From the NCBI GenBank assembly GCA_016187495.1, contig JACPJP010000007.1, forward strand, positions 1 to 51,841: 51,841 nt of DNA, read 5' to 3'. The position numbers were made by a program, and so were the translations under genes. Below, piece by piece: positions 5,270 to 50,876 of the stretch. The notes beneath the pieces are model-generated. The model worked only from the letters and a program-made list of their open reading frames with translations. It did not search any database and was not told the origin of the DNA. Position 1 is the first letter of the stretch. Every line of letters starts with the position of its first letter. The stretch comes from Candidatus Woesearchaeota archaeon (GTDB lineage Archaea; Nanobdellota; Nanobdellia; Woesearchaeales; GW2011-AR4).

Positions 5270-8200
5270 ATGGAAAAATATGAGCCGTTAAAGCAGGAAC
5301 CAGAAATTTTGAAGTTTTGGAAGGATAACAGAATTTATGAAAAAGCAAAAGACAAGAATAGGGGCAAGAATAAGTTCTATTTTTTAGATGGGCCCCCTTA
5401 TACCTCAGGAAAGGTGCATTTAGGCACTGCATGGAACAAGTCCCTAAAAGACTCTATTCTGCGATATAAAAGGATGCAGGGCTTTGATGTTTTAGATAGA
5501 GCGGGATATGACATGCACGGCCTTCCAACGGAAAATGCTGCAGAAAAGGAGCTTGGAATAAAGAAAAAGGATGACATAAAAAAGTTCGGTGTCGAGAAGT
5601 TTGTAAAGGCGTGCAAAGACTTAAGCATCAAAAACATGAAAATAATGAACCAGGATTTTCAAAGGCTGGGCGTGTGGATGGATTTTGACAACGCATACCA
5701 GTCTGTAAAAAAAGAATTTATAGATGGGGAATGGTGGCTTGTCAAGAAAGTGCATGAAAAAAAAAGGCTGTATGAGGGATTAAGGTCAATGGCATGGGAC
5801 TGGGAGCACCAAACAGCATTGGCAAAGCATGAGCTCGAATACAAGGACATTAAAGACAAATCAATTTTTGTAAAGATGCAGGTTAAAGGCAAAAAAAGTG
5901 AGTTCTTAATAATTTGGACTACTACTCCATGGACAATCGCATTTAATTTGGGGATAATGGTTAATCCTAGCCTAGATTATGTAAAATGTAAGGTTAATAA
6001 TGAATACTGGATTGTGGCAAAGGACATTGCTAATTCATTTATTTCTGGAATTGCAGGAAAAAAATACGAGATTGTGGAAGAATTCAAAGGCAAAAAACTG
6101 GAAGGAATCGAATATGTGCATCCGCTTTATGGTGAATTAGAAGAGCATTATAATAAAATAAAGCAAAAGCACCCGAAAACACATACTGTGGTTATGAGCG
6201 AGGAGTATGTTGACGCAAGTTCTGGTTCCGGTCTTGTCCATATGGCTCCGGGCTGCGGCCCTGAGGATTATGAAGTCGGCCACAGAAACAATATTCCCGC
6301 ATGGAATCTGGTAAAAGAAGATGGCATCTATTCAGATGACATGGGAAAGTTTGCGGGAATGCACACCATAAAAGACAATGTCAAATTTATTGAGCATTTA
6401 AAAGAAAAAAATGCAGTTGTTGCCCAGCAGGTTGTAGAGCATTCCTATCCGCATGGGCAAAGAAGCCATGAGCCGGTTATATTCAGGACAACAAAGCAAT
6501 GGTTCTTTAAAGTTGAGGATATTAAAAAAAGCTTAATCATGGAAAATGACAAGATAAAGTGGGTCCCGAAAGCAGGCTACAATGCATTCAATTCATGGCT
6601 GGAAAACTTAAGGGATAATTCAATATCAAAACAACGGTATTGGGGAACCCCTGCACCAATATGGCGCAATGTTGAAAATCCGGATGATTATATTGTTATA
6701 GGATCAATAGAAGAGCTTGAGCAACTATCTGGAAAAAAAGTGGAAGAGCCGCATATCCCTTGGATTGATGAAATAAAGATTAAAAAAGATGGAAAAGCTT
6801 ACAAGAGGGTTCCTGATGTGCTTGATGTATGGGTAGATGCAGGAACCGTTTCTTGGAACTCTTTAGATTTCCCCCATAATGAAGATGATCTAAAAAAATA
6901 TTTCCCGGCTGATTTTATACTGGAAGGCAAAGACCAAATCAGGGGTTGGTTTAATCTGCTCCATGTAGCTTCCATGCTTTCCATGGGAAAAAGAAGTTTT
7001 GATGCAGTATATATGCATGGCTTCATTAATGATGCAATGGGCAGAAAAATGTCAAAAAGCTTGGGCAACTATATCCTTCCAGAAGAGGTCATAAACAAAT
7101 ATGGCTCGGATACTTTAAGGTATTACATGATTTCCGGAACAAATCCTGGCTTGGACTTAAATTATAATTTTGAGGATATGAATGTAAAGTACAGGAACTT
7201 AACAGTATTATGGAACCTCCATAATTATGTTATAGACCTTGCGAAAAATTCTGGCACTAACCCATCAGAGATTAAGATAAGAAAAGATCGCTTTTCATTG
7301 GAAGAAAGCTACATTTTCTCAAAATTGAACTCAACAATAAGAAAAACTACAAAGACTCTTGATGAGTATAAATTAAATGAAATTCCGCTGCTGGTTGAAA
7401 ACCTTTTCTTAAAGCTAAGCAGGACTTATATCCAATTGACGAGGGACAAATCTGCAGGGGAAGACAAGAAAGTTGTTTTGTACGCAGTTTATAATGTCTT
7501 AATTGAAACACTAAAGATGTTTGCGCCTATAGCTCCATTCATAACTGAAAAGATCTATCAAAACCTAAAAAAAGAGTTTAATTTGGAAAGAGAAAGCATA
7601 CACCATTATGAATGGCCGAAATGCGATGAAAAATTAATTGACAAGGAGCTGGAAAATGAGATGGATGATATAAGCGATGTGCTGCAAGCAATTTTTTCAT
7701 TGAGGGAAAAAATAAACCTAGGCATAAGATGGCCGCTGCAGGAAGCTGTTATTGTTACAAAAGATGAAAATACAATAAAGGCTGTTGAAAAGCTTAAAAG
7801 CCTTATAAAAACACAGGCAAATATCAAAGAGATTGGTGTTCAGCAGTCATTGCCTGGAATAAAGCTGATGGTAAAAGCTGACTATTCAAAGCTTGGACCT
7901 GACTTCGGGAAAAAAACACCGGAAATAATAGCAAAGCTTACTTCTGAAAGCCCTAAAACAATATTAACACATATAGAAAAAGAGGGAAAGTACGAATTGA
8001 TGATAAATAAAGAAAAGATAAATATTGTAAAGGAGCATATAATTGTTACAAGAGAGGTTCCTGCTCCTTATATTGAAGGCGCTTTCAAAAAGGGGCTTGT
8101 TTATTTAAACAAAGACATCGATGAGGAACTGGAAGCGGAAGGCTATGCCCGTGAATTGATGCGCAGAATACAGGAACTGAGGAAAAAAGCAGGATTGGAG

Positions 8201-8401: not shown

Positions 8402-9468
8402 TGGAGAGAATAGACTCGATTGACATTTTCAGGGGTTTTGCAATTCTGCAGATGATATTCTGGCAGATTTTTGATTTCTTTGCAAAAGTTGACATTTATA
8501 AAGATGTTCCATATTATATTCCGATTTTTAATATGCCGATTCATGGAACCGGGGTTGCTTTTTTTGCTTTTATAAGCGGCACCAGTGCTTATATTGCATT
8601 ATCAAGAAAATTAAATAAAAATGCAGGGAAAAAGGATGTTATTTGGCACTTAATCAAAAGATATGGCGGTTATATCCTGCTAAGCCTGTTTTTTACCACT
8701 TTTGTGTTCGGATTTAAGACATTTTACATATGGAATGAAGCTATTCAGGGAATCGGGCTTGCTACCCTAGTTGCCGCGTTGGTAATTCTGCTATTCCGCT
8801 CAAAATTTGTGCTGGCTGCTTTAAGCTTGGCCATAATATTAGCGCAGCCTTTTTTAAGGCAGTTTATAGAAAATAGGCTTGCCATTCAGAATTTTCCTGA
8901 AAACCTGATTTCCTTTGATATATTTTCAAATGCGGTTTCAATATTTTTGAATTCTGCCTTTAGGGGATTTTTCTCTCTCTCAAACCTGCTTCCAATTGCA
9001 TTATTTGGGATAGTCCTGTCACATTTTTTGTTGGAACTAAATAAAAAAAGAGTGATAAAGGTTTCGTTAGCGCTAGGCATTATATTTACTTTAATTTCGA
9101 TATTCCTGCATTTTTCAATTAACCAAATAGATTACTATAACAGATCTTCTTCTTATCAATTATTTTATATAGGGCTGTCTTTCCTGTTATTTGGCCTAAT
9201 AGGATTTTTACTTAAAAAATTTAAAAGAAATAGTATATTTGATGTGCTTATCTTATTTGGAAAAGCTTCTATAGTTGCGTATTTAGTCCATTACATATTT
9301 ATTTATAAGTTATTGAGCATATTAAACTATGAAAGCGTATTGGACTCTTTAATTTCTTATTTTCTTGCTGTAATTTCAATTATAGCTGTATATCACATCT
9401 GCAGAATTTGGCTAGCAAGCAAACGAACTGTTTCTGACAGGGTAAAATCATTTTTTGGCAATTATTGA
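8401..9468 (+). CDS. multi-pass membrane protein, DUF1624/HGSNAT-like acyltransferase family
   Basis: The N-terminus RIDSIDIFRGFAILQM matches the R(I/L)xS(I/L)DxxRGxA start of that family. There are about 9-10 hydrophobic spans. Its start overlaps the ileS stop (TAATGG). Confidence 0.55.
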   Translation: MERIDSIDIFRGFAILQMIFWQIFDFFAKVDIYKDVPYYIPIFNMPIHGTGVAFFAFISGTSAYIALSRKLNKNAGKKDVIWHLIKRYGGYILLSLFFTTFVFGFKTFYIWNEAIQGIGLATLVAALVILLFRSKFVLAALSLAIILAQPFLRQFIENRLAIQNFPENLISFDIFSNAVSIFLNSAFRGFFSLSNLLPIALFGIVLSHFLLELNKKRVIKVSLALGIIFTLISIFLHFSINQIDYYNRSSSYQLFYIGLSFLLFGLIGFLLKKFKRNSIFDVLILFGKASIVAYLVHYIFIYKLLSILNYESVLDSLISYFLAVISIIAVYHICRIWLASKRTVSDRVKSFFGNY

Positions 9469-11906: not shown

Positions 11907-14900
11907 ATGGCCTTATTCGACAAAACCAAAACACCCTTTTCATATGATGTCATAAGGGAAGGGGATGATGTAATTCTTTCAATCAACTTAGAGGATTACC
12001 CCCATACTCCTTCGATAGAAGATGATCCAATGGTTATGTCAAAAACATGCGACATGCTGATAGAGGTAAAAGACGCAACAAAGATAGTTTTTATACAAAA
12101 AAGAAATTATGAGTATGATTCTATTCAGACCGAGATGCTGAAGGAGATTTCAAGGTTATATAGCCAGCTGACAAGAAGAAAAGACGTGTTTGGCTACAAT
12201 ACGCTTCTGTCTGATACCAAGTGCTCAAGATGGATTAACGCTTGGTACGCGAATGTGCAGAATGTAATATCCAATTTGTTAAGGTCAGATCCAGTAGGGG
12301 CTTATGTAGAGCTTATAAGGATTGCAAGAGATGAAAGGATAAAAGCAGAAAAGTCTGTTGATAATCCATACATCAGCTGCTCAAGCAGGTATGCAGACGT
12401 TTTGGACTACATAATAAAGCTGCTCGAGAAAACAAAGGTTATTGCATTGGCAAAACCATACGTAGCGGGCCATAAAGTAGGAGACCGGGAAATATACAGG
12501 AAAAGTTTTGCTGCAATAATAAGGCCAGATTTTATGTTCACAAAAATCATGGCCACTTATCCTGCAGAAGGGGAAGAGGTAGACAGCTATACCGTTGGAA
12601 AGGACATTGAGGTTACGATATTCGAGCTTCCGGAAACTGTGCAATACTTATACCATATAATTCCCCCAGAATTCAAATTGAGCGAGGAAAAATATGAAAT
12701 ATTGGATACTGCCAGGAAGATAATGGCAGAGCACAAGCCCAGAAGAACGGAATTCATTGATCCTGAAAGAATGAGGCAGGTTTTCTATAATGTAGGCTCA
12801 GACCTTATTGACGAGCTTGCAGCCGAGAAAAATATCAGCATGACTTCCTCTGAAACAGAGCAGCTTGCAAATATTCTTGTGAGGTATACGGTAGGCTTTG
12901 GATTGATAGAAGTTTTGCTGCAGGATGAAAAAGTGCAGGACATAACAGTAAACAACCAGATAGGGGAAGTTCCCATGTTTATTGTGCACCAGGATTATGG
13001 TGACTGCAAAACAAACATAATTCCAACTACAACTGAAGCTGAATCATGGGCAACAAAATTCCGCCTTATTTCGGGAAGGCCATTGGATGAAGCAAATCCG
13101 ATACTGGATACGGAGCTTGAGCTGGCAACCGCACGCGCAAGAGTTGCAGCAGTAGGCCCTCCGCTGAATCCCTTGGGCCTGGCATACTCATTCAGAAGGC
13201 ATAGGGACATGCCATGGACTTTGCCGTTATTCATCAACAACCGCATGATAAATCCATTATCAGCCGGATTGATTAGCTTCTTGATAGATGGCAGCAGGAC
13301 AATACTTGTAGCAGGCACAAGGTCAGCAGGAAAGACATCGTTATTGGGGTCAATTCTTGTAGAATTAATGCGAAAGTACAGGGTACTAACGATTGAAGAT
13401 AGCGTTACGGGAGACTGTAGCCTCTGCATCAACAGAAATGGAAAGATAGAAAGAACAACTATTGCAGGTTTAGTTGATGGTATGTTTAATAGGTATGGAA
13501 GCTGGTATAGTTTAATAGAGCACGAAGTTACAGGAAATCCGGAAAATATCAAAGTCTTTGCTATGGACAAAGAAGGAAAGATAAAACTTGCAAATGTAAG
13601 CAAATTTATACGCCATAAAGTTAAGAAGCCAGTATACAGTATAAAAACAAGAACTGGCAGGGTTATAAAAGTTACAGGGGACCATTCTCTTTTTGGGCTA
13701 AGCAATGAAGCTAAAATAATAGAAGTTAAGGCAAATGAACTTAAAGCAGGCAGCCATATAGCTGTGCCTAGGTTTATAAGTCTGGATAACAAGCCAATAA
13801 AAAATTTAGAATTGCTTAATCAGATTGTCAGAATATCAAAAACTTATTTCCATGGAGCTTCAATTCAAAAAGCAATTTCAGAATACAAAAATGAAATTAA
13901 GAAGTTTGGAAAGGAGCTAGGATATGAAAAATCAGCAATCAGGAATTGGATTAAAAGGGGATTTTTGCCGCAGCCGGTGCTTTCTGCCTTAATCAACTTG
14001 GGGTTAAGAATAGGAAAGGATATATACTTTTCTTATAACAACAGCATAACAAAAATTCCCGCAAATATCGGGCTTGAAGAAGATTTCCTTACTTTTATTG
14101 GCCTTTGGATAGCTGATGGCTGTTACGATAAGAGTTCCGTAATAATATTCTGTAATGACTTGGAAGACAGAGGCATATTTGATAAAGTTGCGCAAAAATT
14201 CAATATCAAAAGAAAACTGCATTCTGATGGTGTCTCTTATATGCTGAATTCCAAGCCTCTTAAAATTATGATGAGGGAATGCCTCAACTTGCAAGGCGAC
14301 GCATACACAAAAAGAATTCCAGATTGGGTTTATAATCTTTCCAAAGAGCAGATATCTTTCGTCTTGAAGGGTATTTTCTCAGGAGATGGGTGCGCTTCAG
14401 ACAAGGAATTAGTTATACCGCTTGCTTCAATTAATCTTCTGAAGGATTTGCAGTTCTTGTTAGCTGCTTTCGGAATTAATCTCAGGATTGGAACGCTAAG
14501 AAAAGACGGGACTTATAATGCCAGCATCAGCACAATAAAAGATTTTGTTAAATTTAATGAAAGCATAGGGTTTTTACAAGAGTATAAAAGAGCAAAGCTG
14601 ACAAATCTATACGCAAAAATAAGCACGCATGATACGTCCGATATAATTCCTCTTCCCCTGGAAGCCAAAAAAGAGATAGAAAAAAATTATCGTGAGTTCA
14701 AATATGGGGATTATATTTTAAGGAGTAATGACATTGGAAGAACGAGGCTCTCGCAGATTGTTGAATTGATGCCTGACAGCGAATTAAAGAATAATTTAGC
14801 AAATCTTGCTAGCTCAGATATATTTTGGGATGAAGTTAAGTCAATAGAGATATCGCAAGACTTTGAGGACTATGTGTATGACATTTCTGTCCCAGAATGT

Positions 14901-15746
14901 GAAAGCTTTGTTTGCGAGAATATAATAGCGCACAACACATTAGAGCTTCCAACAGCATCGTTGAGAAAGCTAGGGTATAACATACAGCCTATGAAAGTAG
15001 CAGCAGCCTTGACAAAAGGAACATCAGAGGTGCCTGCAGATGAAGGGATTAGGACCACATTAAGGATGGGCGACTCTGCTTTGATTATAGGTGAAATAAG
15101 GAGCAGGGAAGCTCTTGCGTTATACGAAGCAATGAGAGTAGGAGCTTTAGCAAATGTCGTAGCAGGAACTATACATGGAGACAGCCCTTACGGGGTTTTT
15201 GACAGAGTTGTTAATGACTTACAGGTTCCAAGGACAAGCTTTAAGGCAACCGACATCATCATAGTTGCTAACCCAATAAGAAGCCCTGACGGCCTGCACA
15301 GATGGAGAAGAGTAACACAAATAACAGAAGTAAGAAAACACTGGGAAAATGACCCGTTGCTTGAAAACGGATTTGTAGACCTTATGAAGTATGACACAAG
15401 AACTGACCAGTTAGAGCCGACTGATGAGCTAATTAATGGCGATAGTGAAATCCTCAAGGGCATAGCAGGAAATGTAAAGGAATGGGCTGGCAGCTGGGAT
15501 GCAGTCTGGGACAACATAATGCTAAGGGCAAAAATGAAAGACACTCTTGTAGATGTAGCAAAAAAAGTAAATATGATGAACTTATTAGAAGCGGATTTTG
15601 TCGTGCGGGCAAATGACGAGTTCCATAGGATATCGGACAGAACGCTGGAAGACACAGGAACTCTAGACAGCAAAAAAATATTTTTTGACTGGAACGAATG
15701 GCTTAAAACCCAGATAAAAAAGATCAATATGAAAAGTACAATATAG
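11907..15746 (+). CDS. type II/IV secretion (GspE/VirB11/FlaI-ArlI family) ATPase carrying an intein; the host protein is 767 aa after splicing
   Basis: Motifs present are Walker A GTRSAGKTS, an Asp box RVLTIED|...|TLELP split by the intein, Walker B-like ALIIGEIRSREA, and a His box GTIHGDS. There is a long N-terminal domain. Confidence 0.9.
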   Translation: MALFDKTKTPFSYDVIREGDDVILSINLEDYPHTPSIEDDPMVMSKTCDMLIEVKDATKIVFIQKRNYEYDSIQTEMLKEISRLYSQLTRRKDVFGYNTLLSDTKCSRWINAWYANVQNVISNLLRSDPVGAYVELIRIARDERIKAEKSVDNPYISCSSRYADVLDYIIKLLEKTKVIALAKPYVAGHKVGDREIYRKSFAAIIRPDFMFTKIMATYPAEGEEVDSYTVGKDIEVTIFELPETVQYLYHIIPPEFKLSEEKYEILDTARKIMAEHKPRRTEFIDPERMRQVFYNVGSDLIDELAAEKNISMTSSETEQLANILVRYTVGFGLIEVLLQDEKVQDITVNNQIGEVPMFIVHQDYGDCKTNIIPTTTEAESWATKFRLISGRPLDEANPILDTELELATARARVAAVGPPLNPLGLAYSFRRHRDMPWTLPLFINNRMINPLSAGLISFLIDGSRTILVAGTRSAGKTSLLGSILVELMRKYRVLTIEDSVTGDCSLCINRNGKIERTTIAGLVDGMFNRYGSWYSLIEHEVTGNPENIKVFAMDKEGKIKLANVSKFIRHKVKKPVYSIKTRTGRVIKVTGDHSLFGLSNEAKIIEVKANELKAGSHIAVPRFISLDNKPIKNLELLNQIVRISKTYFHGASIQKAISEYKNEIKKFGKELGYEKSAIRNWIKRGFLPQPVLSALINLGLRIGKDIYFSYNNSITKIPANIGLEEDFLTFIGLWIADGCYDKSSVIIFCNDLEDRGIFDKVAQKFNIKRKLHSDGVSYMLNSKPLKIMMRECLNLQGDAYTKRIPDWVYNLSKEQISFVLKGIFSGDGCASDKELVIPLASINLLKDLQFLLAAFGINLRIGTLRKDGTYNASISTIKDFVKFNESIGFLQEYKRAKLTNLYAKISTHDTSDIIPLPLEAKKEIEKNYREFKYGDYILRSNDIGRTRLSQIVELMPDSELKNNLANLASSDIFWDEVKSIEISQDFEDYVYDISVPECESFVCENIIAHNTLELPTASLRKLGYNIQPMKVAAALTKGTSEVPADEGIRTTLRMGDSALIIGEIRSREALALYEAMRVGALANVVAGTIHGDSPYGVFDRVVNDLQVPRTSFKATDIIIVANPIRSPDGLHRWRRVTQITEVRKHWENDPLLENGFVDLMKYDTRTDQLEPTDELINGDSEILKGIAGNVKEWAGSWDAVWDNIMLRAKMKDTLVDVAKKVNMMNLLEADFVVRANDEFHRISDRTLEDTGTLDSKKIFFDWNEWLKTQIKKINMKSTI
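13401..14936 (+). mobile_element. 512-aa intein with a LAGLIDADG homing-endonuclease domain
   Basis: It starts at Ser (SVTGDCSLCI, block A). Block B is IKVTGDHSLF. The two LAGLIDADG motifs are FIGLWIADGCYD and VLKGIFSGDGCAS. It ends ...IIAHN followed by Thr+1. Removing it restores the conserved TIED-TLEL. Confidence 0.85.
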
Positions 15747-18110: not shown

Positions 18111-18326
18111 TTAAAATCTAATTAAAAAACTAAAAATTAACAACCAGTCCCTTTTGCCTTAATATCTCTTTTATTATTTCCATCTTATCACCTCAATATT
18201 TTTTATTATCGGCTTAACATTATTCTTATTTAAATAATTTTATGCTAGAAATATTCTTATTGGAATAATAGAAAAATTTAAAGCAAGATTGTCTATTATA
18301 GGTTTAGGTATTGTAAAGAGAGTGAG

Positions 18327-18472
18327 TGGGACCGCTGGGATTTGAATTCCTGCGCCAAAAGTAAAAACATTTGGACGTCCCAGGACAACTACGTCTTCAG
18401 CGTATAGAGCCGCAAAAATGCGTGTGCTCTCCTTAGACGAAGATGTTCCTTCCCAGTCTGAGCTACGGTCCC
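18327..18472 (-). tRNA. tRNA-Phe (anticodon GAA) interrupted by three putative introns
   Basis: On the minus strand, the exons are 18472-18450, 18429-18424, 18404-18379 and 18346-18327. Joined, they give a 75-nt cloverleaf: GGGACCG UA GCUC AGACUGGGAA GAGC A CUACG CUGAAGA CGUAG UUGUC CUGGG UUCAAAU CCCAG CGGUCCC A. All stems are fully Watson-Crick. No CCA is encoded. Confidence 0.6.
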
Positions 18473-18517
18473 TTAAGATTTTCAGAATTAATATACAATT
18501 TAAATTACTTTCGCTTA

Positions 18518-18967
18518 CTAGTCTTCAACGTCCTCGACATCAACTTCTTCTTCTAGACTTTCTTCACTACCTTCCAGCTTTTCCTCAATATCTTCCAGGT
18601 TTTTTTCAGATTCTTCGTATATTCTCTTGTCTTCTTCCTCATCAGGCCCTTTAGTCATTTCTTCATTAGTTTCTTGGCTTTCGCCAACAACCTCTAATTT
18701 GCCCATCTTGCCCGTAGTAAGCTGCTTTTCTCCCTGCCATTCAGAAACATAGCCGTTGGTAATATGAACTTTATCACCAGCCTTAACCTGATCAATTTGG
18801 TCATTCCACAAAGTAAGCTTTATATCGCCAGTTTCGTCCTTTGCAACAGCAGTAGCAACCCTTCCCGATTTTCCAAACTTCTCAAATTCCCTTGGCTCTC
18901 CAACATCGATTATATCAACAACCAGCTCAACATTGCCCTGCCTTGCCTTTAAATCCTTGATTGCCAT
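18518..18967 (-). CDS. ssb: single-OB-fold ssDNA-binding protein with an acidic C-terminal tail
   Basis: The N-terminal roughly 100 aa has an OB-fold pattern (VELVVDIIDVGEPREF...GRVATAVAKDETGDIKLTLWNDQ...GDKVHITNGYV). It is followed by an E/D-rich tail ending EEEVDVEDVED. Confidence 0.75.
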   Translation of the reverse strand: MAIKDLKARQGNVELVVDIIDVGEPREFEKFGKSGRVATAVAKDETGDIKLTLWNDQIDQVKAGDKVHITNGYVSEWQGEKQLTTGKMGKLEVVGESQETNEEMTKGPDEEEDKRIYEESEKNLEDIEEKLEGSEESLEEEVDVEDVED

Positions 18968-19016: not shown

Positions 19017-20549
19017 TTATTTAACTAATTTCCCAGCTTCCTCAAATTTTAGCTCATTATTGATTAATTTCCTTATCGTTTCTTTCAACTCGTCAATTTT
19101 TATTCTTATCTGTTCAGTTGTGTCCCTATGTCTCAATGTTACTGATTCGTCTTTCAATGTGTCAAAATCTGTTGTACAACCCAAAAACGTTCCTTCCTCA
19201 TCAGCTCTCGCATAGCGCCTCCCAATTGAACCGCTACAATCATACCTGCAATTAAACTCATTTTTCAACAAATCGTAAACTTCTCTTGCTTTTTTAACAA
19301 TCTCCAGCTTATTTGAAACTAAAGGAAAAACCCCAACCTTAACCGGAGCTAATTTAGGATGTAGTTTCAAAACAACATTTTCCCTTTTTTTGTCGTATTC
19401 GTAGGCATCAAACATGAAAACCAGAAAAGACCTGTCTACCCCTAAAGAAGGCTCTGCAATGACATGCGGCACTATCTTCTTCTTTGTTTCCTCATCAAAA
19501 ATGCTCAAGTCCTTTCCTGAAAACTTCATATGCTGCTTTAAGTCAAAATCGGTTCTATTAGCAATGCCCTGCAGCTCTTTCCATCCAAAGGGAAAATTAT
19601 ATTCTAAATCCCATGTATCCAAGGCGTAATGGCTTTTTTCTTCTCTCAAATGCTGCCTCACCCTAAAATTTTCTGCCTTTGCTCCCAAGTTTGTAAACCA
19701 ATTCTGCTCTGTAGATAGCCAATATGCATGCCATTCAGAAATTAATCTTTGGTTTAACGCATCCTTTACTTCCATTTTTACGGGCTTTTTATTTTTCTGC
19801 TGCATTTCCGCGCTGTAAAAGTTAAGCTCTGTATCAATAATCTCATTAATAAAAGGGCATTTGTTTGTTTGTTCTGGATGTGCAAAATACTCTATTTCCA
19901 TCTGTTCAAACTCTCGGCTTCTAAATAAAAAATCCCTTGGGCTTATCTCATTCCTAAATGCCCTTCCAGCCTGCGCAATCCCGAAGGGCAGCTTTAGCCT
20001 TGCATTGTCCACCACAAGTTTAAAGTCTGCAAACATGAGCTGTGCAGTTTCTGGCCTTAAATAAGCAATAGGGCTTTTATCCTCTTTAGGTCCTACATTT
20101 GTCTTGAACATTAAATTAAACTGCTGCGTATCCTCAAAATCAGAACTGCACTTTGGGCATTTTAATTTATTTTTTTTGATAATGCTGTTTATTTCTTCCG
20201 CCTTATGCCCCTCAACATTAACCTGCAATTTTTCCTGAATAAAATGATCAGCTCGTATTTTTTCCTTGCACTTAGGGCAGGCAAGCATTATATCTTGAAA
20301 GCTCTCGACATGTCCCGACGCTTCCCAGACTTTTGGGTGGGTAATAATGCTGCCGTCTATTCCTACGATATCTTCCCTTGACTGCACATGGTATTTCCAC
20401 CACTCGTTCTTGATATTATTTTTTAACTCAACTCCCAAATGCCCATAGTCCCAGAAGCCTGAAAATCCCCCATAAATCTCACTATTTGGATATACAAAAC
20501 CTTTTTTCTTGCAGAATATAGCCATGTCTTCAATGGTTAATTTGGTCAT
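19017..20549 (-). CDS. glyS: glycyl-tRNA synthetase (archaeal/eukaryal alpha2 type)
   Basis: The protein is 510 aa. It has FVYPNSEIYGG...GFWDYGHLG, class II motifs (FRNEISPR, GVDR), and a C-terminal anticodon-binding domain. Confidence 0.95.
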   Translation of the reverse strand: MTKLTIEDMAIFCKKKGFVYPNSEIYGGFSGFWDYGHLGVELKNNIKNEWWKYHVQSREDIVGIDGSIITHPKVWEASGHVESFQDIMLACPKCKEKIRADHFIQEKLQVNVEGHKAEEINSIIKKNKLKCPKCSSDFEDTQQFNLMFKTNVGPKEDKSPIAYLRPETAQLMFADFKLVVDNARLKLPFGIAQAGRAFRNEISPRDFLFRSREFEQMEIEYFAHPEQTNKCPFINEIIDTELNFYSAEMQQKNKKPVKMEVKDALNQRLISEWHAYWLSTEQNWFTNLGAKAENFRVRQHLREEKSHYALDTWDLEYNFPFGWKELQGIANRTDFDLKQHMKFSGKDLSIFDEETKKKIVPHVIAEPSLGVDRSFLVFMFDAYEYDKKRENVVLKLHPKLAPVKVGVFPLVSNKLEIVKKAREVYDLLKNEFNCRYDCSGSIGRRYARADEEGTFLGCTTDFDTLKDESVTLRHRDTTEQIRIKIDELKETIRKLINNELKFEEAGKLVK

Positions 20550-25074: not shown

Positions 25075-25656
25075 ATGTATCGAAATAGAAACAATGAACT
25101 TGAAGTTATTTCTTTGTACAGGGCCAACTACAAAGAATCAAGATTTTATCTTAGGCAGATAAGCAAACTTGCGAAAATTCCACTTAAAACCTGCCAAACT
25201 GCGCTTATGAATCTTGAAAAAGAAAAAGTGCTTAAAAGCAAAATAGAAGGCAAAAACAAGTATTTTGCCCTCAATCTGGATAATATCAAAGCAAAATCTA
25301 ACTTATTGCAAGCGGAAATTTACAGGACAGACATATTTTTAGAGGCTTACCCTCAAATTAAAACATTCTTAAAATCCATTAATACTAATATCCCCATTAT
25401 TGTTTTTGGCAGTTTTGCCAGATTAAAAGCAGACAGGAATTCTGATTTGGATTTGCTTATAGTTGCTGGAGAAAAGCAAAAATTGCCTTACCATCTCCTG
25501 CCTTATAAAGTTCATCAGGTTAATATTTCCGAAAATTCTTTTAGCAAAGCAATTAAAGAGCAGGAAACCTTAGTAAAAGAAATAGGAGAAAACCATGTCA
25601 TTTTAAACAACCATTCTTTTTATATAAATGTAATGTGGGGATATTATGGGAAATAA
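25075..25656 (+). CDS. minimal nucleotidyltransferase (MNT) with an N-terminal winged-helix-like domain; antitoxin-type partner of HEPN
   Basis: IIVFGSFARLKADRNSDLDLLIV matches the GS-x(9-10)-DxD polymerase-beta NTase motif. The N-terminal roughly 80 aa (LRQISKLAKIPLKTCQTALMNLEKEKVLK) looks like a wHTH. Confidence 0.75.
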   Translation: MYRNRNNELEVISLYRANYKESRFYLRQISKLAKIPLKTCQTALMNLEKEKVLKSKIEGKNKYFALNLDNIKAKSNLLQAEIYRTDIFLEAYPQIKTFLKSINTNIPIIVFGSFARLKADRNSDLDLLIVAGEKQKLPYHLLPYKVHQVNISENSFSKAIKEQETLVKEIGENHVILNNHSFYINVMWGYYGK

Positions 25657-26116
25657 AAAACTAAGCTGGTGCTTTAAGTTAAAAGACGGATTGAAAGTAG
25701 TTGAGCCGAATGAAAGGCTTTCAAAATCTTATCTTGAGCAGGCAAAGTCATCTTTGTCGAGAGCTGAAAAAGACCTAAATGACAAGGATTTTCTTTGGGC
25801 AACAGTTGCAATATACTATGCAGAGTATTATGCCCTTTATTCTTTTCTTCAAAAAATAGGCGTAAAGTGTGAAAATCATGCATGTTCAATTCTTGCAGTA
25901 GCTTTTCTTTTAGGCGAAGATAAGACTAAAACAATTAATCTGCATAAAGACAAGAGAATTGACGCCCAGTATTACATTAAGGTTGACCAAGAAGCAAAGA
26001 TAAGAACAATGATTCAGGAAGCAAAAATGTTCGTGGCAGATTTTGATGAAGTCGTATCTAATTTATCTGAAGAGGATATAAAGCAATACAGGGAAAATAT
26101 TTCTGAAAATCGTTAA
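25646..26116 (+). CDS. HEPN-domain protein
   Basis: The ORF is 156 aa and all-helical (YLEQAKSSLSRAEKDLNDKDFLWATVAIYYAEYYALYSFL). It overlaps the MNT gene by 11 nt, which is the classic MNT-HEPN gene pair. Confidence 0.65.
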   Translation: MGNKKLSWCFKLKDGLKVVEPNERLSKSYLEQAKSSLSRAEKDLNDKDFLWATVAIYYAEYYALYSFLQKIGVKCENHACSILAVAFLLGEDKTKTINLHKDKRIDAQYYIKVDQEAKIRTMIQEAKMFVADFDEVVSNLSEEDIKQYRENISENR

Positions 26117-30637: not shown

Positions 30638-30763
30638 AGCGAGGGAAGGGACTCGAACCCTTGAATAACCGCTCTGCAGGCGGTCGCCTATCGGCTTATT
30701 GATACTCAAGCATCAATAATTAGCCGCTTGGCTCTAAGGTATTATTTTTCAATAAACCCTCGC
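30638..30763 (-). tRNA. tRNA-Cys (anticodon GCA) with two putative introns in the D-arm region
   Basis: On the minus strand, the 3' part is uninterrupted: G ACCGC CUGCAGA GCGGU UAUUC AAGGG UUCGAGU CCCUU CCCUCGC U, with the discriminator U73 typical of tRNA-Cys. The 5' part must be assembled from GCGAGGGUU (30763-30755) and GCCAAGCGGCUA (30732-30721). An extra copy of GCGAGGG lies at 30784-30778. Confidence 0.65.
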
Positions 30764-30791
30764 ATAGCGGACTATGCCCCTCGCTAATGCG

Positions 30792-49910: not shown

Positions 49911-50876
49911 CACATAATTGGTTTACATTTCTGCTTCTTTATAAACCAAGTAAAAACTCCAACTTTGGTGATATAAAATGTACAAACTGAATGAAAAAAA
50001 CGTAAATGGATAATAAGAAGAATAAAGGCAGGAATACCTAAATCAAGGATTGCTTTATCTATGAAGATAAGCAGGATGGCAGTATGGAAGATAGAGCAAA
50101 AATACAAAAAATGGGGTAAAGAAGGGCTAAAGGATAGTAGACCAGGAAGGCTCTTTGAGCCTTTAAACTCCAAATTCTATGAATCGGTTATATCAGAATG
50201 GAAGAAATACAAATGTGGAGCAAGAAATCTTCATGCGATATTCAGGAAGAAAGGATTTAAGGTTTCTAGACGCAAAATAGAACAAGTTCTAGTTAAAGAA
50301 GGCTTTCAAAAACCATTCCCTAAAAGAAGAAAGCCTAGAAAGTACAAACGGTATGAATGGCCCCTGCCAAACTACATGTGGCACACGGATTGGCATGTCA
50401 TTAAGGCTAAAAAACTGAAAGGCAAGAAAATACTTCTGTATCTTGATGATTGTTCAAGAAAAATTATGGGGTATATAATTGGTGCAGAGAACACTAAGAA
50501 TTCTCTGTTAGCACTTTATAGCGCAATTGCTAAAAATCTAGTAACACCATTTATATTAAACAGCGATAGGGGGTCCCAGTTTATTTCAAATAAACTGGAC
50601 AAGAAAGGAAAAGCAACACATGAATTTCAGGAAGCGCTAACTAAACTAGGAATAATCTTTGTACCGTCAAAGAGGAGGCATCCCCAGACAAATGGGAAGA
50701 TGGAGAAGTTCTTTGATATTCTTGATAAAGAATTTGATGAGAGATTTGAAACGATTGACGAGTTTATAGAATGGTACAACAATGAAAGACCGAGTGAAGC
50801 AGTGGATTATATGACTCCAAACGAGGCATACAAAAAGAGGCTTTAAAAACCCGTTAAAGTGTAAACCAATTTCGTG
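49911..50876 (+). mobile_element. insertion sequence with about 12-18-bp terminal inverted repeats (core AATTGGTTTACA)
   Basis: The left repeat is aattggtttaca at 49916-49927. The right repeat is tgtaaaccaatt at 50860-50871. They enclose a DDE (rve) transposase gene. The exact ends are uncertain by a few nt. Confidence 0.7.
49978..50846 (+). CDS. DDE (integrase-core, IS481/IS3-like) transposase; the N-terminal HTH is reached from the ATG at 49978 only via a -1 shift in the A7 run at 49994-50000
   Basis: The catalytic residues are in WHTDWH (D), NSDRGSQF (D) and TNGKMEKFF (E). The HTH-like RKWIIRRIKAGIPKSRIALSMKISRMAVWKIEQKYKKWGKEGLKD is in frame with the core but has no upstream ATG. MYKLNEK is in the +1-offset frame. 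Confidence 0.7.

Follow-up and report, generated by a model that had tools for sequence, protein, structure and literature searches.

Evidence for a tRNA-Phe(GAA) gene divided into four exons by three bulge-helix-bulge introns in a Woesearchaeota-like archaeon

The 146-nt minus-strand locus at 18327-18472 of the window (the whole 51,841-nt stretch of DNA analyzed here) is very probably a functional tRNA-Phe(GAA) gene of a Woesearchaeota-like (DPANN) archaeon, apparently the only copy, split into four exons by three short bulge-helix-bulge (BHB) introns. The gene extends from G1 to the discriminator A73, its minus strand having GGGACCGTAGCTCAGACTGGGAA at the 5' end and TTCAAATCCCAGCGGTCCCA at the 3' end, and CCA is not encoded at the locus. 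An earlier note on this DNA, made from the sequence alone, had observed that the locus has the ends of a tRNA yet is 146 nt long, which is indeed how the sequence reads. Removal of the three inserts gives a cloverleaf with all the stems of the spliced product intact, comprising an acceptor stem of 7 bp, the D and T arms, and an anticodon arm whose 7-nt loop contains GAA. ARAGORN identified the spliced 74-mer as tRNA-Phe(GAA), and the predicted lowest-energy fold of this 74-mer is the cloverleaf (-31 kcal/mol). The anticodon loop CTGAAGA, the variable loop TTGTC, and A73, all of which the earlier note had pointed out, are present in the spliced product. The identity elements of tRNA-Phe are G20, G34, A35, A36, and A73, and every one of them is found in the spliced tRNA, G20 being retained by the corrected placement of intron 1 described below. 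The coordinates of the features are collected in Table 1.

The unspliced locus escapes standard gene finders: ARAGORN, run on the raw window in its default and its intron mode, detected no genuine tRNA there or elsewhere in the window, and Rfam gave no match at the gathering score across the whole window, nor at E ≤ 10 within 18250-18550. A call that ARAGORN made at 25804-25904 when its threshold was lowered looks spurious. To cover the whole window, we scanned both strands by joining acceptor-stem anchors with all combinations of up to three strict splice motifs, and we submitted the 4,799 candidate products to ARAGORN. Only the tRNA-Phe locus and one other intergenic locus, a tRNA-Cys gene, were recovered, and the same scan of six dinucleotide shuffles of the window produced no hits. 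Because the scan gave two loci and the shuffles gave none, the tRNA-Phe locus lies far beyond what chance would produce.

Table 1. Features of the tRNA-Phe(GAA) gene and introns of the tRNA-Cys(GCA) gene, in window coordinates
Feature	Coordinates	Strand	Length	Sequence and description	Basis
BRE + TATA promoter-like element	18498..18514	-		GCGAAAGTAATTTAAAT; immediately follows the OB-fold gene's stop codon	sequence reading
Exon 1	18454..18472	-	19 nt	GGGACCGTAGCTCAGACTG; acceptor 5' strand, U8, A9, D-stem 5' strand, D-loop to G18	splice-motif geometry and collinearity with intron-free orthologs
Intron 1	18433..18453	-	21 nt	GGAAGGAACATCTTCGTCTAA; D-loop, linear position 19/20 (Sprinzl ~18/19)	
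Exon 2	18424..18432	-	9 nt	GGAGAGCAC; D-loop G19-A21, D-stem 3' strand, A26, C27	
Intron 2	18405..18423	-	19 nt	ACGCATTTTTGCGGCTCTA; between positions 27 and 28	
Exon 3	18379..18404	-	26 nt	Anticodon stem from position 28, CTGAAGA loop, TTGTC variable loop, T-stem 5' strand CTGGG	
Intron 3	18347..18378	-	32 nt	ACGTCCAAATGTTTTTACTTTTGGCGCAGGAA; between positions 53 and 54	
Exon 4	18327..18346	-	20 nt	T-loop TTCAAAT, T-stem 3' strand, acceptor 3' strand, A73	
tRNA-Cys intron	30755-30734	-	22 nt	After position 8; central helix GAGG/CCTT	
tRNA-Cys intron	30720-30690	-	31 nt	D-loop; central helix CGGC/GCCG	

Splice motifs and the placement of intron 1

We searched for splice sites with a strict motif, in which a helix of 4 bp is flanked by 3-nt bulges and adjoined by an intron-side helix no shorter than 3 bp. 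Applied to the locus, the search listed introns 2 and 3 and a corrected version of intron 1, all with central helices free of G-U pairs and mismatches. Each of the three introns has the core of a 3-nt bulge, a 4-bp Watson-Crick helix, and a second 3-nt bulge, with the splice sites between bulge nucleotides 2 and 3. At the canonical 37/38 intron, archaeal EndA cuts inside the bulges, the exons then being joined by an RtcB-type ligase, and we assigned the splice sites by applying this established cutting rule. The central helix of intron 1 is AGAC/GTCT, with the bulges TG^G and AA^G, the intron-side helix GAAG(G)/CTTC, and an exon-side helix of 3 bp. Intron 2 has the central helix GAGC/GCTC, the bulges AC^A and TA^T, and the intron-side helix CGCA/TGCG with a TTTT loop; it has no exon-side helix, the anticodon stem directly abutting the 3' bulge. 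In intron 3, the central helix CCTG/CAGG is accompanied by the bulges GG^A and AA^T, the intron-side helix CGTC(C)AAA/TTT(T)GGCG, and an exon-side helix of 3 bp that lies past a U-U mismatch. The intron-side helix is 4 to 5 bp long in each of the three introns.

The boundaries proposed in the earlier note for intron 2 (18423-18405, at 27/28) and intron 3 (18378-18347, at 53/54) were exact, both introns being in the strict motif list, and the ACA bulge that it drew between AGAGC and CGCA is real, appearing in the motif search as well as in the fold. It had also argued that some junctions lacked a strict motif and that an endonuclease of relaxed specificity would consequently be needed; this need loses its basis because, once intron 1 is corrected, every one of the three introns has an intact 3-4-3 core. 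The cores appear to settle the matter of strict versus relaxed specificity only in part, given that the exon-side helix is short in intron 1, interrupted in intron 3, and absent from intron 2. Searches with a relaxed motif, allowing one mismatch and two G-U pairs, returned many alternative "tRNAs" per locus, and these were dropped in favor of the single solution that is strict throughout and matches the orthologs.

Four alternative 21-nt excisions of intron 1 give an ortholog-like D-loop, and one of them, precursor positions 20 to 40 (18453-18433), has a perfect motif. With intron 1 defined in this way, the micro-exon is 9 nt long, the mature tRNA is 74 nt long, and its D-loop is AGACUGGGA. 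The earlier note had instead excised 20 nt (18449-18430), which left the 6-nt micro-exon GAGCAC and a 75-nt tRNA with the D-loop AGACUGGGAA, some of its junctions having no BHB and calling for the relaxed-specificity endonuclease mentioned above. The segments named there have the sequences that it gives and do leave a cloverleaf when removed, and the resulting 75-mer is likewise accepted as tRNA-Phe(GAA) by ARAGORN. We nevertheless regard that exact model as unlikely: checked by hand, none of the equivalent 20-nt excisions allows a 4-bp helix with 3-nt bulges to be drawn, and none is in the strict list, whereas the 21-nt excision has its perfect motif. Furthermore, the D-loops of the intron-free orthologs are AGACTGGGA or shorter, and the extra A of the 75-mer occurs in none of them. 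The two placements differ at the exon 1/exon 2 junction of the mature tRNA, which would read GGGAGAGC under the 20-nt model and GGGAAGAGC under the 21-nt model. We therefore retain the 21-nt intron 1 and, with it, GGAGAGCAC as the micro-exon in place of GAGCAC.

Orthologs, covariation, and gene setting

A search with the exon-3 pattern (the identical 26-mer, with one N) gave 21 loci in 20 related Woesearchaeota/Nanoarchaeota genomes, one gene per genome being matched in the 20 relatives. The tRNA-Phe gene is uninterrupted in 12 of these 20 genomes and carries one to three introns in 8. The intron-free genes have a D-loop of GCTCAGACTGGGAGAGCAC or shorter, and the 10 of the 12 that were scanned score 65.7 to 68.1 bits against the Rfam tRNA model, for which the threshold is 29 bits. 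They are collinear with our spliced product across all three junctions, and the spliced product equals them except at compensatory acceptor-stem pairs and position 44.

The introns are distributed among the relatives in differing combinations. L048 has introns at all three of the sites seen in the window, L049 and L054 have introns 1 and 2 only, and L046, L051, and L061 have introns 1 and 2 together with a different, T-loop intron at 59/60. L062 has a single intron, at 53/54, and L001 lacks all three window introns and has only the one at 59/60. L001, whose Gly-tRNA synthetase (GlyRS) is 76% identical to that of the window, contains a contiguous match to spliced positions 1 to 62 just downstream of the same genes. 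The intron-1 motif recurs in L048, L049, L046, L051, and L061 and also in L054, whose central helix has a single mismatch. The intron at 59/60 (locus 2606-2719 of L001; also in L046, L051, and L061) forms its central helix, TTCA/TGAA or, in L001, with TGAG, from the conserved T-loop, and one extra nucleotide separates its intron-side helix from the central helix.

Inserts were seen in other tRNA genes as well. The tRNA-Cys gene of L103 has an intron placed similarly to the one at 59/60, and tRNA-Cys genes of Micrarchaeota (L092 and L116) have short T-loop inserts. ARAGORN also made over-long (88 to 95 nt) or unassignable tRNA calls (Pro, Met, and "???") in Woesearchaeota, at L002:8765-8856, L005:630-724, and L006:1934-2025, 7611-7699, and 8851-8941, and these calls probably reflect further non-canonical introns.

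Comparison of the interrupted genes revealed covariation in intron 2. Across seven loci, its intron-side helix takes four unrelated sequences (CGCA/TGCG, TACT/AGTA, TCCY/RGGA, and TGCAC/GTGCA), 100% of the cells are paired, and three of the four intron-side pairs have changed on both sides. The covariation score was reached by 0 of 500 shuffles, and slid controls pair in 30 to 52% of cells. At the site of intron 3, which is shared by the window and L048, L062 has an intron whose intron-side helix is entirely different in sequence yet pairs perfectly over 9 bp, AGTTAATTG/CAATTAACT. The helices of intron 1 are mostly conserved across homologs and show little covariation; in genes of the L046 type, the helix is lengthened to 6 bp. 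The exons of these genomes differ almost solely by paired changes in the acceptor stem. Judged from these alignments, exons that are nearly invariant and introns that diverge with compensation indicate a selected gene with selected splice structures rather than a pseudogene.

The element that precedes the gene (Table 1) is a putative promoter, and 25 nt separate the end of its TATA box from G1. L001 and L049 have the 17-mer at this same spacing, and in most of the orthologs examined a TATA-like box lies ~25 to 35 nt upstream. In L048, the promoter-like motif is kept as GGGAAAGTAATTTAAAT but lies 52 nt upstream instead of 25, a spacing that would imply an ~27-nt-longer leader or an insertion. 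The tRNA-Phe gene sits in a 407-nt gap after a gene for an OB-fold, Ssb-like protein (18518-18967), which itself follows the GlyRS gene (19017-20549) on the same strand. GlyRS is closest, at 57 to 76% identity, to proteins of Woesearchaeota, Pacearchaeota, and Nanoarchaeota metagenome-assembled genomes, and in L001 the tRNA-Phe gene is likewise downstream of the GlyRS gene, behind the same promoter 17-mer.

The window as a whole has ~36% G+C. It encodes archaeal core proteins (a family-B DNA polymerase, TFB, an RFC-like ATPase, and ribosomal protein L10e) and, besides GlyRS, two class-I aminoacyl-tRNA synthetases of the Ile/Leu/Met/Val type and a Cys-tRNA synthetase. Several other plus-strand genes drew our attention. 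A 1,279-aa ATPase of the type II/IV secretion family (11907-15746) is split by an intein whose homing-endonuclease domain is of the LAGLIDADG type (Pfam Intein_splicing, LAGLIDADG_3, and T2SSE), and overlapping genes for a nucleotidyltransferase-domain protein and a HEPN-domain protein (25075-26116) form a pair typical of toxin-antitoxin-like modules. An open reading frame at 111-767 matches the gas-vesicle proteins GvpL/GvpF (E 1e-31), which is unexpected for a DPANN-like genome, and one near the end of the window (50061-50846) has a retroviral-type (rve) integrase core, suggesting an insertion sequence or integrated element.

These observations bear on whether the locus might be a decayed pseudogene, that is, a former tRNA-Phe gene that acquired three insertions and is no longer expressed or spliced, a working copy being present elsewhere in the genome. 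The failure of standard finders to recognize the locus is what such decay would lead one to see, but the stems of the spliced product are all intact, the exons are nearly invariant while the introns diverge freely and keep their helices through compensatory changes, and the promoter element is conserved. Moreover, relatives with the same introns show one exon-3-pattern match per genome, and a second gene of the same build is present in the same window. Decay is thus a very unlikely explanation, and we continue to read the locus as a functional gene. An assembly or chimera artifact, with the inserts arising from misassembled metagenomic reads, might be suspected in a window from an uncultured organism but is refuted by the exact 146-nt precursor in all 10 of the Logan contigs fetched, which are independent assemblies from 10 sequencing runs, and has against it the homologous introns at the same sites in the genomes of other species, so that its probability is negligible. 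Eleven Logan contigs (runs SRR12113419-33) encode the neighboring OB-fold protein in identical form.

Processing and a second interrupted gene

On the proposed pathway, transcription would start ~25 nt downstream of the BRE/TATA element, and the precursor would fold such that each pair of exon-intron junctions formed a 4-bp helix between two 3-nt bulges. EndA would then cleave between the second and third nucleotides of each bulge, an RtcB-type ligase would join the exons, and end processing and CCA addition would follow to give a tRNA with the 74-nt body GGGACCGUAGCUCAGACUGGGAGAGCACUACGCUGAAGACGUAGUUGUCCUGGGUUCAAAUCCCAGCGGUCCCA. Since the central helices use the D-loop, the 3' strand of the D-stem, and the 5' strand of the T-stem, the mature arms cannot form before splicing. 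Transcription, cleavage, ligation, and any order of splicing at the locus are our reading of its sequence by analogy with known introns.

Folding of the unspliced precursor with ViennaRNA gave probabilities of 0.00, 0.98, and 0.67 for the central helices of introns 1, 2, and 3, respectively. In the predicted lowest-energy fold, CGUCU of intron 1 pairs with AGACG of the anticodon arm. The earlier note had proposed that a segment of intron 1 pairs with the anticodon region, and the fold agrees with this as to the partners, although the register is different; the pairing is a predicted competing fold only, and the locus can be explained without it. With introns 2 and 3 excised, the probability of the intron-1 helix rose to 0.55 for the window and 0.69 for L048, but for L049 and L054 it stayed close to 0 when intron 2 was excised. 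Introns 2 and 3 might therefore be presented first and intron 1 only afterwards, but since the prediction agrees in the window and L048 and not in L049 or L054, we keep ordered splicing as a weak hypothesis. The idea that introns lying close together are removed in a set order is an established one (PMC8450103).

EndA was not found among the 28 open reading frames of the window that were scanned. Relatives encode a single-unit enzyme with both EndA Pfam domains, as in the Nanoarchaeota and Pacearchaeota relatives L011 (10259-10780, minus strand, 173 aa) and L009 (10991-11503, minus strand, 170 aa), where the EndA gene is ~3 to 4 kb from the GlyRS gene. The clade contains more than 514 genes of this kind. 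The tblastn probe was a Methanocaldococcus jannaschii EndA sequence, and the matches were verified by Pfam and PDB searches; the L011 protein can be aligned with the homotetrameric M. jannaschii enzyme along its entire length.

The second locus recovered by the whole-window scan, at 30638-30763 on the minus strand, is a tRNA-Cys(GCA) gene with U73 and two BHB introns (Table 1). ARAGORN and Rfam both missed it, and a "Leu" call made by ARAGORN at 30638-30782 with a lowered threshold is a misparse of this gene. The spliced 73-mer is nearly identical to the intron-free tRNA-Cys of Woesearchaeota metagenome-assembled genomes (L091, L093, L081, L099, and L120), and in other relatives the tRNA-Cys gene has D-loop or T-loop introns. 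The gene lies two genes upstream of the Cys-tRNA synthetase gene on the same strand, with a hexapeptide transferase gene in between. Just ahead of it, at 30764-30784 on the minus strand, there is a 7-nt copy of the 5' strand of the tRNA-Cys acceptor stem (GCGAGGG, 30784-30778), 14 nt upstream of the true 5' end. The spacer before that 5' end contains the hairpin GCATAG-TCCG-CTATGC, and two BHB-like candidates in this stretch would cut at or beside the 5' end of the tRNA.

Relation to other disrupted tRNA genes

BHB introns, as many as three per gene, are well documented in archaeal tRNA genes, mainly those of Thermoproteales, and positions 20/21, 53/54, and 59/60 are among the archaeal intron sites listed (PMC4090602, PMC4033280, PMC8450103). 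As cited in the same three papers, Sugahara et al. (2007/2008) reported multiple-intron tRNAs in Pyrobaculum, Caldivirga, and Thermofilum. The statement in the earlier note that multi-intron tRNAs are known mainly from Thermoproteales and some DPANN lineages agrees with the literature (PMC8450103, PMC4033280, PMC5829648). Like the genes of Thermoproteales, those described here contain short BHB introns (up to three in a gene) at sites that are non-canonical and include 53/54, 59/60, and the D-loop, they yield a cloverleaf only after in silico splicing, and close relatives vary in the presence or absence of introns. They differ in that Thermoproteales are hyperthermophilic crenarchaeotes, whereas the organism studied here is an AT-rich, presumably mesophilic DPANN archaeon, and in that EndA of its relatives is predicted to be a single unit of 170 to 173 aa instead of the crenarchaeal alpha/beta pair. 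In addition, many of the introns of Thermoproteales are relaxed, whereas those in our gene have the full 3-4-3 core, and there is no 37/38 intron in it.

Disrupted tRNA genes of DPANN archaea were reported in 2018 in a survey that included one Woesearchaeota genome, noted incomplete tRNA sets, predicted undiscovered disrupted genes, and described, for several DPANN lineages rich in such genes, an EndA of the alpha4 type that has an additional loop (PMC5829648). ARMAN-2/Micrarchaeum has disrupted tRNA genes and an epsilon2 EndA (PMC3239211). The genes of ARMAN-2 and of that survey resemble ours in belonging to the same superphylum and in having non-canonical and multiple introns. In the literature, we found no description of this gene, of its three tRNA-Phe sites, or of their presence/absence pattern in Woesearchaeota.

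The introns have the motif of a 3-nt bulge, a 4-bp helix, and a 3-nt bulge in common with the canonical 37/38 intron, and EndA and an RtcB-type ligase presumably act on both, but none of the three is at 37/38, and their central helices are drawn from other parts of the tRNA, as described above. The split and permuted tRNAs of Nanoarchaeum equitans, Caldivirga, and Cyanidioschyzon are likewise tRNA genes in pieces with the same processing motif; here, however, the pieces are collinear on one 146-nt unit, and neither trans-splicing nor a circular intermediate is required. The three-intron tRNA-Phe gene is a well-supported addition to a documented class, in a lineage outside the usual training of intron models, and does not represent a new kind of element or mechanism.

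Multi-intron tRNAs are usually held to be the work of an alpha/beta or epsilon2 EndA. A broader proposal, which we offer tentatively and consider rather doubtful, is that Woesearchaeota and their relatives may be undergoing recent, ongoing turnover of BHB introns at non-canonical tRNA positions (for tRNA-Phe, four sites and six combinations, in 8 of the 20 genomes sampled), serviced by a single-subunit, alpha4-like endonuclease rather than by an enzyme of either of those types. Splicing in the gene described here might also be ordered: pairing with the anticodon arm would keep intron 1 hidden as long as introns 2 and 3 were present.

Standard tRNA finders leave gaps in DPANN genomes, having found none of the at least two tRNA genes in these 51 kb, and from such gaps one may wrongly conclude that tRNAs are absent or that decoding capacity is reduced. 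The 20 orthologous loci, with their differing combinations of introns, are a ready data set on the gain and loss of protein-spliced tRNA introns, and they allow one to ask if a simple endonuclease suffices for multi-intron genes.
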